A stretch of DNA of 64,000 nucleotides from assembly GCF_003334305.1 (NCBI RefSeq), contig NZ_QOWS01000014.1; one strand, 5' to 3'. Positions within the stretch are counted from its first letter, which is position 1. Each line of letters begins with the position of its first letter. Source of the stretch: Escherichia coli. Lineage in GTDB: Bacteria; Pseudomonadota; Gammaproteobacteria; Enterobacterales; Enterobacteriaceae. The position numbers and the translations under genes were made by a program. This document shows positions 2 to 42,590 of this stretch, one piece after another. Under the pieces are notes generated by a model. That model worked only from the letters and a program-made list of their open reading frames with translations, made no database searches and had not been told where the DNA came from.

Positions 2-1036
2 GAGCTGCGTCAGGCTCTAGAAGATTCCGTTAAAAGCCATCTGATGTCTGATGTGCCTTACGGTGTGCTGCTTTCTGGTGGTCTGGATTCCTCAATTATT
101 TCCGCTATCACCAAGAAATACGCAGCCCGTCGCGTGGAAGATCAGGAACGCTCTGAAGCCTGGTGGCCGCAGTTACACTCCTTTGCTGTAGGTCTGCCGG
201 GTTCACCGGATCTTAAAGCAGCCCAGGAAGTGGCAAACCATCTGGGCACGGTGCATCACGAAATTCACTTCACTGTACAGGAAGGTCTGGATGCCATCCG
301 CGACGTGATTTACCACATCGAAACTTATGATGTGACCACTATTCGCGCTTCAACACCGATGTATTTAATGTCGCGTAAGATCAAGGCGATGGGCATTAAA
401 ATGGTGCTGTCCGGTGAAGGTTCTGATGAAGTGTTTGGCGGTTATCTTTACTTCCATAAAGCGCCCAACGCTAAAGAACTGCATGAAGAGACGGTGCGTA
501 AACTGCTGGCCCTGCATATGTATGACTGCGCGCGCGCCAACAAAGCGATGTCCGCCTGGGGCGTGGAAGCGCGCGTTCCGTTCCTCGACAAAAAATTCCT
601 TGATGTGGCGATGCGCATTAACCCGCAGGATAAAATGTGCGGTAACAGCAAAATGGAAAAACACATCCTGCGTGAATGTTTTGAGTCATACCTGCCCGCA
701 AGCGTGGCCTGGCGGCAGAAAGAGCAGTTCTCCGATGGCGTCGGTTACAGTTGGATCGACACCCTGAAAGAAGTGGCGGCGCAGCAGGTTTCTGATCAGC
801 AACTGGAAACTGCCCGCTTCCGCTTCCCGTACAACACGCCAACCTCAAAAGAAGCGTATCTGTACCGGGAGATCTTTGAAGAACTGTTCCCGCTTCCGAG
901 CGCCGCTGAGTGCGTGCCTGGCGGTCCTTCCGTCGCGTGTTCTTCCGCTAAAGCGATTGAGTGGGATGAGGCGTTCAAGAAAATGGACGATCCGTCTGGT
1001 CGTGCGGTTGGCGTTCACCAGTCGGCGTATAAGTAA
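2..1036 (+). CDS. asnB: Asparagine synthetase B, C-terminal part (5' end lies outside the window)
   Basis: Frame from position 2 translates ELRQALEDSVKSHLMSDVPYGVLLSGGLDSS..., recognised as AsnB; runs to stop at 1034-1036. Confidence 0.95.
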   Translation, partial: ELRQALEDSVKSHLMSDVPYGVLLSGGLDSSIISAITKKYAARRVEDQERSEAWWPQLHSFAVGLPGSPDLKAAQEVANHLGTVHHEIHFTVQEGLDAIRDVIYHIETYDVTTIRASTPMYLMSRKIKAMGIKMVLSGEGSDEVFGGYLYFHKAPNAKELHEETVRKLLALHMYDCARANKAMSAWGVEARVPFLDKKFLDVAMRINPQDKMCGNSKMEKHILRECFESYLPASVAWRQKEQFSDGVGYSWIDTLKEVAAQQVSDQQLETARFRFPYNTPTSKEAYLYREIFEELFPLPSAAECVPGGPSVACSSAKAIEWDEAFKKMDDPSGRAVGVHQSAYK

Positions 1037-1044
1037 GAAATGCG

Positions 1045-1080
1045 AAACAGCCCCGGTGAAATCCGGGGCTGTTTCAGTTA
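1045..1080 (+). terminator. Putative intrinsic terminator after asnB
   Basis: Inverted repeat acagccccgg / ccggggctgt followed by a T-containing tract. Confidence 0.55.
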
Positions 1081-1347
1081 TTGAGGTGCTTGTTAATTCT
1101 GATATGCAGTAAGGAAATGTTCCGGGTTTGCCACATCACTGTTTGACAACTCATCACTGTAGGCCAGTATTTCATAGATTAATTTCCCACCACTATTGTT
1201 GAATTCCGAATTTCATCCTGTACGACAAAAGAATGGCTGTAGGGTGGGGAAAAAACACAAAGTAAACAATAATTGACGAATATAGCGCCACGCTGTTCGC
1301 AACCTAACCAAACAGTCACTTTCGAGCAATTTTCCTTGAAAAAGAGG

Positions 1348-1384
1348 TTGACGCTGCAAGGCTCTATACGCATAATGCGCCCCG
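1348..1384 (+). promoter_or_regulatory. Putative sigma70 promoter of the tRNA operon, stringent type
   Basis: TTGACG at 1348-1353, 17-nt spacer, CATAAT at 1371-1376, then GC-rich discriminator GCGCCCCGC, about 40 nt upstream of the first tRNA. Confidence 0.55.
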
Positions 1385-1416
1385 CAACGCCGATAAGGTA
1401 TCGCGAAAAAAAAGAT

Positions 1417-1493
1417 GGCTACGTAGCTCAGTTGGTTAGAGCACATCACTCATAATGATGGGGTCACAGGTTCGAATCCCGTCGTAGCCACCA
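1417..1493 (+). tRNA. metT: tRNA-Met (elongator, anticodon CAU)
   Basis: 77 nt GGCTACGTAGCTCAGTTGGTTAGAGCACATCACTCATAATGATGGGGTCACAGGTTCGAATCCCGTCGTAGCCACCA with encoded CCA. Confidence 0.95.
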
Positions 1494-1502
1494 TCTTTTT
1501 TT

Positions 1503-1587
1503 GCGGGAGTGGCGAAATTGGTAGACGCACCAGATTTAGGTTCTGGCGCCGCAAGGTGTGCGAGTTCAAGTCTCGCCTCCCGCACCA
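1503..1587 (+). tRNA. leuW: tRNA-Leu (anticodon UAG)
   Basis: 85 nt GCGGGAGTGGCGAAATTGGTAGACGCACCAGATTTAGGTTCTGG...CGCACCA with long variable arm and encoded CCA. Confidence 0.95.
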
Positions 1588-1610
1588 TTCACCAGAAAGC
1601 GTTGTACGGA

Positions 1611-1685
1611 TGGGGTATCGCCAAGCGGTAAGGCACCGGTTTTTGATACCGGCATTCCCTGGTTCGAATCCAGGTACCCCAGCCA
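1611..1685 (+). tRNA. glnU: tRNA-Gln (anticodon UUG)
   Basis: 75 nt TGGGGTATCGCCAAGCGGTAAGGCACCGGTTTTTGATACCGG...CCCCAGCCA; anticodon loop TTTTGAT. Confidence 0.95.
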
Positions 1686-1700
1686 TCGAAGAAACAATCT

Positions 1701-1777
1701 GGCTACGTAGCTCAGTTGGTTAGAGCACATCACTCATAATGATGGGGTCACAGGTTCGAATCCCGTCGTAGCCACCA
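1701..1777 (+). tRNA. metU: tRNA-Met (elongator, anticodon CAU), second copy
   Basis: Sequence identical to the copy at 1417-1493. Confidence 0.95.
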
Positions 1778-1825
1778 AATTCTGAATGTGTCGAATACGT
1801 TCGGCAAATTCAAAAACCAATTTGT

Positions 1826-1900
1826 TGGGGTATCGCCAAGCGGTAAGGCACCGGATTCTGATTCCGGCATTCCGAGGTTCGAATCCTCGTACCCCAGCCA
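1826..1900 (+). tRNA. glnV: tRNA-Gln (anticodon CUG)
   Basis: 75 nt TGGGGTATCGCCAAGCGGTAAGGCACCGGATTCTGATTCCGG...CCCCAGCCA; anticodon loop ATTCTGATT. Confidence 0.95.
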
Positions 1901-1906
1901 CATTAA

Positions 1907-1938
1907 AAAAGCTCGCTTCGGCGAGCTTTTTGCTTTTC
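1907..1938 (+). terminator. Intrinsic terminator of the tRNA operon
   Basis: Hairpin aaaagctcgc-ttcg-gcgagctttt followed by tgcttttc. Confidence 0.8.
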
Positions 1939-1944
1939 TGCGTT

Positions 1945-2046
1945 CATTCAATGTCGAATGCGATGTTGACACGTTTTATCCTTCAATGTCGGATGCGACG
2001 CTGCCGCGTCTTATCCGACCTACGGTTGGCACGCATCCGGCAATGT
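1945..2046. repeat. REP/BIME-like extragenic palindromic repeats
   Basis: Two copies of ttcaatgtcg(a/g)atgcga plus CGTCTTATCCGACCTACGG, resembling the enterobacterial REP consensus. Confidence 0.5.
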
Positions 2047-2053
2047 TGTAAGG

Positions 2054-3229
2054 CTACAACCCTAACGCATATTTCAGCGCCTGACGTTTCAACACGCCAG
2101 CACGCTCTGCCGCCATTAACCCGAGATTACGCACAAAACGCAGCGGCGGCAGATTATTACTGAATCCGGCATAAAACAGATCCATACCACTTTGCATAAT
2201 GAAGTTATCCGCCATGCGCCGCATCTGGTAACGCTTGAGGACAGGATAACTGGCCCACGCTTCACCGTAGCTGCGGGCATTCACCAGAACATCAATCAGG
2301 GCATCGACATCACGATAACCAAGATTCACCCCCTGCCCCGCCAGCGGATGGATGGTATGCGCGGCATCGCCCACCAGCGCAAGCCCCGGCTGCACATACT
2401 GCAACGCATGTCGGCGCGTCAGCGGAAACGCACCAGCGGCAAGCGGTGTAACGTAACCCAGACGCGACGGGAAATGCTTCGCGATTTCCGCCTGGAGTTG
2501 CGCCATATTCATATTCTGCAACTGGCGAATACGTACCGGAGAGTCATACCACACCAGCGATGCCCAGTTATCAAACAACGGCAGAAACGCACGCGGTCCG
2601 TCCGGGGTAAATTGCTGCCAGGTGCTGTCGCCGGGATCGTTCTCACACTGTACGCTAATCAACATACACGACTGCGCATACTGCCAGGCATGAACGCCAA
2701 TTCCCGCCATCTGCCGCACCTGCGAATTTGCGCCGTCAGCACCAATCACCAGCTTCGCGCGAATCACTTCACCGCCCTTCAGTTCCAGCTCCTGAAGATC
2801 ATTATCTCGATGTAATGCAATCAGCGAGCCTGGCACACGTAACGTTACTTTCGGATGAGCTTCCAGCGCCTGCCACAATGCCTGTTGCAGGACGGTGTTT
2901 TCCACCATATAGCCAAGCAGCGGCAGCTTAAGTTCAGCGGCGTCAAACATCACATGCGCCGTTTCCCACTCCCACGTTTCCAGTCTGCGGTAAGGATGGC
3001 AACGCATAGCCTGTACTGCATCCCAGACCCCTAACCCTTTAAGCAATGATACCGATGCGGCGCTGATCGCCGAGATCCGCACGTCCGGTTGGCTATCAGC
3101 GACAAACGGTGCAGGTTCTGCGTGCTCGATCACCGTTACCGAAAATCCGTGCTGTGCCAGCCCCAGCGCCAGTGCGCCGCCGACCATTCCTCCGCCGACA
3201 ATGGCAATTTCCGTTGGTTGATTTGTCAT
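2054..3229 (-). CDS. ubiF: 2-octaprenyl-3-methyl-6-methoxy-1,4-benzoquinol hydroxylase (FAD-dependent)
   Basis: Track ORF 2054..3235 begins with TTG; the ATG at 3229 gives MTNQPTEIAIVGGGMVGG (FAD-binding GxGxxG), 391 aa. Confidence 0.9.
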   Translation of the reverse strand: MTNQPTEIAIVGGGMVGGALALGLAQHGFSVTVIEHAEPAPFVADSQPDVRISAISAASVSLLKGLGVWDAVQAMRCHPYRRLETWEWETAHVMFDAAELKLPLLGYMVENTVLQQALWQALEAHPKVTLRVPGSLIALHRDNDLQELELKGGEVIRAKLVIGADGANSQVRQMAGIGVHAWQYAQSCMLISVQCENDPGDSTWQQFTPDGPRAFLPLFDNWASLVWYDSPVRIRQLQNMNMAQLQAEIAKHFPSRLGYVTPLAAGAFPLTRRHALQYVQPGLALVGDAAHTIHPLAGQGVNLGYRDVDALIDVLVNARSYGEAWASYPVLKRYQMRRMADNFIMQSGMDLFYAGFSNNLPPLRFVRNLGLMAAERAGVLKRQALKYALGL

Positions 3230-7448: not shown

Positions 7449-8987
7449 ATGGCTTTTGCCTCATTAATTGAACGCCAGCGCATTCGCCTGCTGCTGGCGT
7501 TATTATTCGGTGCCTGCGGAACGCTGGCCTTCTCTCCTTACGATGTCTGGCCTGCGGCGATTGTTTCGCTGATGGGGCTTCAGGCGCTGACCTTTAACCG
7601 CCGCCCGCTCCAGTCTGCCGCTATTGGCTTCTGCTGGGGATTTGGCCTCTTTGGCACCGGTATTAACTGGGTCTATGTCAGCATCGCGACCTTTGGCGGG
7701 ATGCCTGGCCCGGTTAACATCTTCCTGGTGGTGCTGCTGGCGGCGTATTTGTCGCTGTATACCGGACTGTTTGCTGGCGTGCTGTCGCGCCTGTGGCCGA
7801 AAACCACCTGGCTGCGCGTGGCGATTGCCGCCCCTGCTCTCTGGCAAGTGACCGAGTTTCTGCGCGGTTGGGTGCTGACTGGCTTCCCGTGGTTACAGTT
7901 CGGCTATAGCCAGATTGATGGCCCGTTAAAAGGGCTGGCACCAATAATGGGCGTGGAAGCCATTAACTTCCTGCTGATGATGGTTAGCGGCCTGCTGGCA
8001 CTGGCGTTAGTCAAACGCAACTGGCGTCCGCTGGTGGTGGCCGTCGTGCTGTTTGCCCTTCCCTTCCCGCTGCGTTACATCCAATGGTTTACCCCGCAAC
8101 CGGAGAAAACCATTCAGGTTTCGATGGTTCAGGGCGATATTCCGCAATCACTGAAATGGGACGGAGACCAGCTTCTTAATACGCTGAAGATTTACTACAA
8201 CGCAACGGCACCGCTGCTGGGCAAATCATCGTTGATTATCTGGCCGGAGTCGGCGATAACCGATCTGGAAATTAATCAGCAACCGTTCCTCAAAGCACTG
8301 GACGGTGAGTTGCGTGATAAAGGTAGCTCGCTGGTAACCGGGATTGTCGACGCGCGTCTCAATAAGCAGAACCGCTACGATACCTACAACACCATCATCA
8401 CGCTGGGTAAAGGTGCACCGTACAGCTACGAATCAGCCGATCGCTATAACAAAAACCATCTGGTGCCGTTTGGCGAGTTTGTCCCGCTGGAGTCGATTCT
8501 GCGTCCGTTAGCACCGTTCTTTGATCTGCCGATGTCGTCGTTCAGCCGTGGGCCATATATCCAGCCGCCGCTGTCGGTAAATGGTATTGAGCTTACTGCG
8601 GCCATTTGCTACGAGATCATTCTTGGCGAGCAAGTGCGCGATAACTTCCGCCCGGATACCGACTATCTGCTGACTATCTCCAACGATGCGTGGTTTGGTA
8701 AGTCTATTGGTCCATGGCAGCACTTCCAGATGGCGCGAATGCGTGCGCTGGAGCTGGCGCGCCCACTGTTGCGCAGCACCAACAACGGCATTACGGCGGT
8801 GATTGGCCCGCAGGGTGAGATTCAGGCGATGATCCCGCAGTTCACCCGCGAGGTGTTGACCACTAATGTGACACCGACCACCGGACTCACACCGTATGCA
8901 CGTACCGGCAACTGGCCGCTGTGGGTGCTGACGGCGCTGTTTGGTTTTGCCGCTGTGCCGATGAGTCTGCGAGCACGTAAACGTTGA
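7449..8987 (+). CDS. lnt: Apolipoprotein N-acyltransferase
   Basis: 512 aa; N-terminal multi-TM region followed by a C-N hydrolase domain. Confidence 0.95.
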
Positions 8988-9037
8988 TGTGCCTGATGTA
9001 TCCTGCATGAGCAAAACGTACTTTCTCATTGAGCTTT

Positions 9038-9064
9038 GGGGCATGGTTATCATGCCCCTTTTTC
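9038..9064 (+). terminator. Intrinsic terminator of lnt, abutting the stop of the convergent 625-aa ORF
   Basis: GGGGCATG-gttat-CATGCCCC followed by TTTTTC; the minus-strand stop codon is at 9065-9067. Confidence 0.75.
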
Positions 9065-40326: not shown

Positions 40327-41115
40327 TCATAATAATTGCGGCGGCGCAAAGCGACGGTTGTTTAAGACGGGCAGTTGCGCGCGCACCTGACGCACACGTT
40401 CGGGCGTCACTTCCGCCATAATGAGTGCAGGCATTTCTGACGCTGCCGCAATGGTGACGCCAAAGGGATCTATAATCCGGCTTTGACCGATATTTTTGTT
40501 CCCGCACTCCCCCGCCGCCACCATATAACAGGTGGTATCCAGCGCACGAGCGGCAAGCAACGTTGACCAGTGATGCTCTTTGAGCGGCCCGCGAACCCAG
40601 GCGGCAGGAAGTACCAGGATTTCAGCTCCCTGTAATGCCTGTGCCAGCGCCAGCTCTGGAAAGCGTAAGTCATAACAGGTCATCAGACCGACCTTCATCC
40701 CCTCCACCTCGAGTAACGGAGCGATTTCATTACCAGCATCAACACGGCGTGATTCCTGAATGGCAAATGCATCATAGAGATGCAATTTGGCATAACGGGC
40801 GACGATGTTTCCTGCCTGTAGCGCCACCAGCATATTCCATGCGCGCCCCGGCGTTGAAGGAACATGAATCGTCAGAATTGTCGTCATCATGTTACGTTTA
40901 CTTTCTCGCCGTAAACGTCCGAGGAATTCGCCTTCCAGCAGCTGTGCTGATTTAACCGATAGATCTGCATCATGATCATCGCGCGCCAGCAATGCTTCCG
41001 GCAGGACGAACAGCGATACGTCGTTTTCCGCCGCCTGCGCCATCAACGAGGCACAAATCTCAGCGTTCTTTTCCCACACAGATGTAACAGCAAACTGTCC
41101 TGCGGCAACCAGCAT
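40327..41115 (-). CDS. ybeM: C-N hydrolase (nitrilase superfamily), apparently intact
   Basis: Uninterrupted reading frame of about 262 aa from [10 protein letters not shown]; track ORF extends two codons upstream. Confidence 0.8.
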
Positions 41116-41207
41116 TGCCACCTCCTGTCAGAGTCGTAAAATTCGCCAACGACGATTATTCGGCGTTACACTTATCACTCATACAAATCAAATAGCAGGA
41201 TTTTGCA

Positions 41208-41595: not shown

Positions 41596-41630
41596 CAAAA
41601 AAAAACCCGCTGATTAAGCGGGTTTTGAAT
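41596..41630. terminator. Hairpin terminator between crcB and cspE
   Basis: aaacccgct-gatt-aagcgggtttt with an A-run upstream and T-run downstream. Confidence 0.7.
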
Positions 41631-41645
41631 TCTTGCTGACGTATC

Positions 41646-41855
41646 TTACAGAGCGATTACGTTTGCAGCAGAAGGGCCTTTGGCACCGTTAGTGATTTCG
41701 AACTCTACGCGCTGACCTTCAGCAAGAGTTTTAAAACCATTAGTCTGGATTGCAGAGAAGTGTACGAACACGTCTTTGCTGCCGTCTTCCGGAGTAATGA
41801 AACCGAATCCTTTGGACTCATTAAACCACTTAACGTTACCTTTAATCTTAGACAT
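41646..41855 (-). CDS. cspE: Cold-shock domain protein
   Basis: Internal start gives [20 protein letters not shown], 69 aa. Confidence 0.95.
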
Positions 41856-42029
41856 CAAAATTACCTTTACATGAAAAATAGACACAAATGCTGTGTCGGT
41901 TACCAGTACACCAATTGTGGTACGCTTTGTCCAGTGCAACTTTACTAAAAAGTGATAAAAGTCGCGTTATTTTTGATGTTACTTATTTTAGCTATTGATT
42001 TTAAAGAAGTTACTAAAACTTCATTTGTC

Positions 42030-42590
42030 TCAAAACTGAAAGCGCATCCAGGCAAAGTACACATTGCCATTGTTGTAGGTACCCGGAATGTAGGTCATCT
42101 GAAAAGTCACTGGGCCATAACCCACGGAGGCCAATGGCAGTAGAACCGGGAGAGGGATGTAATTCCAGTTATCGCGTGCCGTTACGCCAGCGGTGAATCC
42201 CAGACCTAAATGAAAATTTTCATCCGCCAGCGGTCGCCAGGTACTTTCCCATCCGTATCCGGCAATCGGTTCCCATTTGTTCCACGAGTCCTTAAATGCC
42301 ATGGCATACAGGCCATGCCAGTTTCCTTTTTCATCCCAACGCGACAGGCCAAAACCGCCACCCCACGGTCGCTCGTTATAGCGATCGGTTTTTTCTTTGT
42401 CGTAAGCGAAACGTGCATGCCAGGTGATGGCAGGAATATATAAATCATAATGTTCAGGCTGTTGCCAGGTTTGTGCAATATTTTCTCTAAACGTTGTCAT
42501 CCACTCATCTGCGTTAGCAAAAACTTTACCAACGCTGATTAACTGAATAAAAACAAAGGAAAAGATAGCGACATATTTACTCACGTTCAT
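42030..42590 (-). CDS. pagP: Lipid A palmitoyltransferase (outer membrane)
   Basis: Internal start gives [25 protein letters not shown], 186 aa. Confidence 0.9.

Follow-up and report, generated by a model that had tools for sequence, protein, structure and literature searches.

The ybeM locus and the lineage of the window

The window, by which we mean the whole 64,000-nucleotide stretch of Escherichia coli DNA that was analyzed, contains an uninterrupted ybeM gene between tatE and crcB. The gene order is lipA (plus strand), tatE (minus), ybeM (minus), crcB (plus), cspE (minus), and pagP (minus). This order is standard for E. coli, with an orientation opposite to that in MG1655. The gene and its ribosome-binding signal are located as follows:

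40327..41115, minus strand: ybeM coding sequence, 789 nt, 262 codons plus TGA; predicted deaminated glutathione amidase, nitrilase superfamily, Nit1-like
41121..41126, minus strand: Shine-Dalgarno sequence AGGAGG, located 5 nt before the ATG, read from the sequence

Reading of the ORF in the window shows a frame that runs from the ATG at 41115 to a TGA whose last base is 40327, with the terminal stop as the only one and no frameshift throughout 40327-41115 upon realignment. An earlier note on this DNA had described a nitrilase-superfamily ORF uninterrupted for about 262 codons, and its coordinates and codon count proved exact when compared with the ORF reading and the family profiles. The chance of 262 open codons is about (61/64)^262, or roughly 3e-6, and a chance ORF is ruled out by the match to a curated family over the whole length. 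The longest version of the ORF would start at a GTG at 41121 and encode 264 amino acids; this codon falls within the AGGAGG of the Shine-Dalgarno sequence and RefSeq chooses the ATG, which is therefore taken as the true start of ybeM at 41115. A simple consensus scan gave no convincing promoter site upstream of ybeM on the minus strand, and a promoter and terminator scan at ybeM gave nothing exceeding the shuffled expectation. No fluoride riboswitch was found by Rfam at the gathering threshold in the ybeM-crcB intergenic region, upstream of crcB. The sole Rfam hit was the cspA thermoregulator (RF01766), which covers cspE and its leader at 41598-42040 on the minus strand, with 124.5 bits compared with a gathering score of 78. 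In strain A7, the CDS at 10328-11116 of its locus corresponds to window positions 40327-41115, and its product is WP_000959109.1, annotated as "deaminated glutathione amidase" in RefSeq.

The window belongs to a non-K-12 lineage, in agreement with the earlier note. The 22 kb around ybeM are 100% identical to wild isolates, among others A7 (from an orangutan) and NCTC9088, whereas the 15.5 kb from asnB to gltL are 98.1–98.2% identical to MG1655 in their main aligned blocks. None of the traits of the K-12 lineage (loss of G200 in ybeM, described below, IS5D between gltI and lnt, the seven-tRNA metT-glnX array, and near-identity to MG1655) is found in the window. Two features outside the ybeM locus distinguish it from K-12:

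1417-1900, plus strand: tRNA array Met-Leu-Gln(UUG)-Met-Gln(CUG), five genes, where K-12 has seven
9065-10942, minus strand: ORF of 625 amino acids between lnt and gltI, within a segment absent from K-12

The array in MG1655 is comprised of metT, leuW, glnU, glnW, metU, glnV, and glnX, so that the window lacks one copy of each of the two tRNA-Gln species relative to K-12. In the lnt-gltI interval of MG1655 there are ~154 bp of unrelated DNA together with IS5D (insH3), whereas in the window IS5D is absent and a segment of ~2.2 kb (8982-11151) is present instead. The 625-residue ORF in this segment combines an N-terminal rhomboid-protease-like membrane domain with C-terminal YVTN beta-propeller repeats.

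Protein family and active-site residues of YbeM

The encoded protein matches Pfam PF00795 (CN_hydrolase) with an i-Evalue of 9.4e-41, where residues 3-245 align to model positions 2-255 of 256. It also scores 452 bits against NCBIfam NF033621 ("deaminated glutathione amidase"; cut-off 355), with residues 3-261 on profile positions 2-260 of 260; NF033621 is an "exception"-type naming model, and a match to it indicates membership of the YbeM group rather than activity. The score on NF043013, the equivalog model for the Yersinia/Proteobacteria amidase acting on deaminated glutathione (dGSH), is 82.5 bits and lies far under the cut-off of 500, so that YbeM forms a branch distinct from that group. 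Scores were likewise below the cut-off on NF007757 for the omega-amidase/YafV-type amidohydrolases (58.4 bits, cut-off 249) and on NF040852 for true nitrilases (60.2 bits, cut-off 500), and YbeM was far under each cut-off of the models for N-carbamoylputrescine amidase, NAD synthase, formamidase, and Lnt. The best relatives in the PDB are of the Nit1 type, namely Caenorhabditis elegans NitFhit (PDB ID 1ems, 3e-29) and yeast Nit2 (PDB ID 4h5u, 1e-26), followed by mouse Nit2 (PDB ID 2w1v, 3e-22) and yeast Nit3 (PDB ID 1f89, 5e-20).

Alignment with 1ems positions the active-site residues of YbeM as follows:

40996..40998, minus strand: codon of the catalytic glutamate, Glu40, in the LPE motif; counterpart in 1ems, Glu54
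40786..40788, minus strand: codon of the catalytic lysine, Lys110, in the AKLHL motif; counterpart in 1ems, Lys127
40753..40755, minus strand: codon of Glu121, in the QES motif, probably a further glutamate of the active site; counterpart in 1ems, Glu143
40675..40677, minus strand: codon of the catalytic nucleophile, Cys147, in the TCYD motif; counterpart in 1ems, Cys169

All three members of the Glu-Lys-Cys triad, for which an alignment to nitrilase-superfamily members had been proposed as a check, are present (Glu40, Lys110, and Cys147). Glu121 presumably plays the part that is general for this position in the superfamily. Within the printed alignment, Cys147 is aligned to the sole residue that differs between the yeast Nit2 entries 4h5u (ICYD) and 4hgd (ISYD), and 4hgd is presumably an active-site mutant.

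Inactivating lesions of ybeM in E. coli

In MG1655, ybeM (b4581, 658031-658818) has a length of 788 nt and is annotated as a pseudogene, as the earlier note had stated, and in another K-12 record it is flagged as "frameshifted" by PGAP. The gene lies at the same crcB-tatE locus, with DNA ~99% identical to that of the window. Alignment of the two sequences places the K-12 lesion at a single-G deletion at nt 200 of the CDS (delta-G200):

40915..40917, minus strand: codon of Arg67 (CGT); the middle G (window position 40916, CDS nt 200) is deleted in K-12, as seen in the alignment

After the deletion the K-12 frame ends in LYGEKVNVT-stop, giving a product of 75 residues that keeps Glu40 and lacks both Lys110 and Cys147. 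A downstream ORF of 187 amino acids contains the lysine and the cysteine, with no Glu40. Besides G200, the K-12 gene differs from that of the window by V33A, V37A, and six synonymous changes. K-12 and its relatives carry a dead copy of ybeM.

The occurrence of the two forms was determined with 80-mers and 81-mers centered on the lesion, for which 99% identity means exact matches only, among the complete E. coli genomes with a match (n = 5425):

exact intact 81-mer (window sequence): 3534 of 5425 complete genomes
exact K-12 delta-G200 80-mer: 859 of 5425 complete genomes (~16%, about one in six)
remaining alleles at the lesion site: ~1030 of 5425; those sampled are of intact length and differ by SNPs only

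Some records in the genome collection show serial spurious frameshifts, UTME-9 being an example, and the difference between the intact and the K-12 gene could in principle be an assembly or sequencing artifact in one of the two sequences. This explanation is effectively refuted by the population counts, as each of the two forms recurs exactly in hundreds or thousands of genomes, and we regard it as having next to no probability. In addition, the deletion is situated outside any homopolymer run (GGAC[G]TTT) and goes together with a distinct haplotype, with common synonymous SNPs and the crcB allele WP_000939747.1. In UTME-9 itself (NZ_CP157110), cspE, crcB, ybeM, and tatE are consecutively frameshifted, and its ybeM variant with 2 additional nt, considered as a further lesion, was rejected as a probable assembly error. 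The row of frameshifts in this record is probably due to long-read indel error, and frameshifts found in a single genome of the collection may be artifacts.

The deletion is not specific to K-12. Many K-12 laboratory derivatives are among the 859 carriers, and the exact allele is also found in wild isolates, including strain 300709 from human stool in Mozambique (4.88 Mb, ybeM annotated as "frameshifted"), the sheep isolate SX12 from China, and isolates from chicken, dog, river water, cucumber, and bovine mastitis. The frameshift is therefore not a signature of K-12. SX12 combines the loss of G200 with the synonymous SNPs of K-12 and is without V33A and V37A. The crcB allele WP_000939747.1 is present in all three delta-G200 records examined, whereas WP_000939738.1 is present in the examined records with intact ybeM and in F3398. 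These observations fit a single old deletion that would have been inherited by a clade, with more decay on the K-12 branch. The lesion site is intact in the B-lineage strain T7Express, and about 84% of the complete E. coli genomes are without the K-12 lesion. Intact ybeM is accordingly the majority and ancestral state and normal for E. coli, and for this reason it is a weak marker of lineage.

Two further lesions have a different position or nature. One is a single-nucleotide deletion (delta-A49/50) near the start of the gene:

41066..41067, minus strand: AA of the Asn17 codon (CDS nt 49-50), of which an O157:H7 sublineage has lost one A

This deletion occurs in F3398 and 36 others, 37 genomes in total, mostly O157:H7. 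The assumption that the three strains with a copy shorter by 1 nt (F3398, F765, and SX12) all have the K-12 lesion was wrong for F3398, which has the deletion at nt 49/50, and for F765, which has the exact F3398 80-mer; SX12 has the K-12 deletion. In the O166:H15 strain JNE21-003, ybeM is interrupted by an IS21-family element (ISEc62 family; istA/istB) at 281-3198 of the locus and is annotated as two fragments. With the three distinct lesions (delta-G200, delta-A49/50, and the IS21-family insertion), ybeM has been inactivated at least three separate times in E. coli, and this repeated inactivation shows that some lineages, at least, can do without its function. In certain niches, loss of dGSH repair might be neutral or even selectively favored, so that reductive evolution would strike ybeM repeatedly; we put this forward tentatively and consider it rather doubtful. 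If true, the loss of ybeM would be recurrent reductive evolution and not a one-off accident of K-12.

Proposed function and relation to known amidases

The reading we favor, with a probability of roughly 0.85, is that the ORF in the window is an intact and functional allele of ybeM, encoding a Nit1-type amidase that most likely serves in the metabolite repair of dGSH; we infer both the substrate and the physiological role. YbeM belongs to the nitrilase (carbon-nitrogen hydrolase) superfamily and is a Nit1-type amidase of the cytoplasm. The 2-oxo analogue of glutathione, dGSH, arises occasionally as a side product when transaminases deaminate glutathione, and YbeM is predicted to hydrolyze it to 2-oxoglutarate and cysteinylglycine (EC 3.5.1.128). 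In the proposed mechanism, Cys147 would attack the amide carbonyl to form a thioester intermediate, with Glu40 acting as the general base and Lys110 (together with Glu121) likely stabilizing the tetrahedral intermediate or oxyanion, and water would finally free the acid from the thioester. This thioester chemistry is the established pattern of the nitrilase superfamily. Conversion of dGSH to 2-oxoglutarate and Cys-Gly is described as the Nit1 reaction in PMC10452834 and PMC5714238, each with reference to Peracchi et al. 2017.

Comparison of the window gene with other alleles shows nine synonymous changes and one non-synonymous change relative to the intact allele of strain E118, and five synonymous and no non-synonymous changes relative to the O157-type allele (F3398). 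The changes between intact alleles are thus mostly synonymous, which indicates purifying selection. This bears on the possibility that ybeM is open but silent or decaying in the lineage of the window, a relic that has not yet been disrupted, as could be suspected from the three or more independent inactivations within the species and from the absence of a promoter-like site upstream on the minus strand in the consensus scan. The prevalence of synonymous changes between distant intact alleles speaks against such decay, as do the conservation of all catalytic residues, the strong Shine-Dalgarno sequence, and the exact window sequence at the K-12 lesion site in at least 3534 of 5425 genomes. Furthermore, in strain CFT073 NsrR binds to the gene, with a ChIP peak 345 bp inside ybeM, and its transcription is responsive, with down-regulation under NO stress (PMC5320621). 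We therefore consider a decaying relic very improbable. Overexpression of short out-of-frame fragments of the UTI89 ybeM gene leads to filamentation (PMC6206680).

A somewhat larger, although still small, probability is assigned to an intact nitrilase-superfamily amidase with a substrate other than dGSH, which could be some other small amide or, as for the omega-amidase Nit2/YafV, 2-oxoglutaramate. Clear relatives of YbeM also include mouse Nit2 and yeast Nit3, the score on the Yersinia-type dGSH amidase model is below its cut-off, and assignment of substrates by homology is notoriously unreliable in the nitrilase superfamily. However, the Nit1-type structures (1ems and 4h5u) rank ahead of those of the Nit2 type, and the scores on the omega-amidase and nitrilase models reach only 58 bits of the 249 and 60 bits of the 500 required. 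Good dGSH amidases reportedly also exist in E. coli, as homologues of Nit1, and in other glutathione-producing bacteria. An intact Nit1-type amidase acting on dGSH is thus preferred over both a relic and an enzyme with a different substrate.

Intact ybeM is a normal housekeeping gene that was already annotated, and the K-12 pseudogene was already well known. The additions made here are modest: the lesion is placed exactly and occurs in ~16% of complete genomes, well beyond K-12, and there is evidence that the gene was inactivated repeatedly and independently. The window represents wild-type, non-K-12 E. coli, with K-12 as the exception at ybeM, and K-12 is in this respect an incomplete reference for E. 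coli metabolism. In MG1655, ybeM serves as a "neutral" site for integration (PMC7242477); for most other E. coli strains, such an insertion would knock out a live gene. As a single-base marker, the delta-G200 deletion is handy for a clade that extends far beyond K-12 and does not single out K-12 itself.

Among known systems, the eukaryotic Nit1 proteins (mammalian Nit1, yeast Nit2, and the Nit domain of NitFhit) have the superfamily fold class, as judged by sequence, and the Glu-Lys-Cys triad in common with YbeM, and the reaction proposed for YbeM is the same as that given for Nit1 in PMC10452834. In contrast to these proteins, YbeM is shorter (262 amino acids) and without the Fhit fusion. Yeast Nit2 has an insertion near the C terminus that is absent from YbeM, and the alignment breaks into two stretches at this point. 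The omega-amidases of the Nit2 or E. coli YafV type are members of the same superfamily with the same catalytic residues as YbeM, but they constitute another subfamily with 2-oxoglutaramate as the preferred substrate, in line with the low score of YbeM on their model. The E. coli YbeM protein WP_000959109.1 (NF033621) is identical to the product of the window gene, with no difference, and the DNA of strain A7 encoding it is likewise 100% identical over 22 kb.
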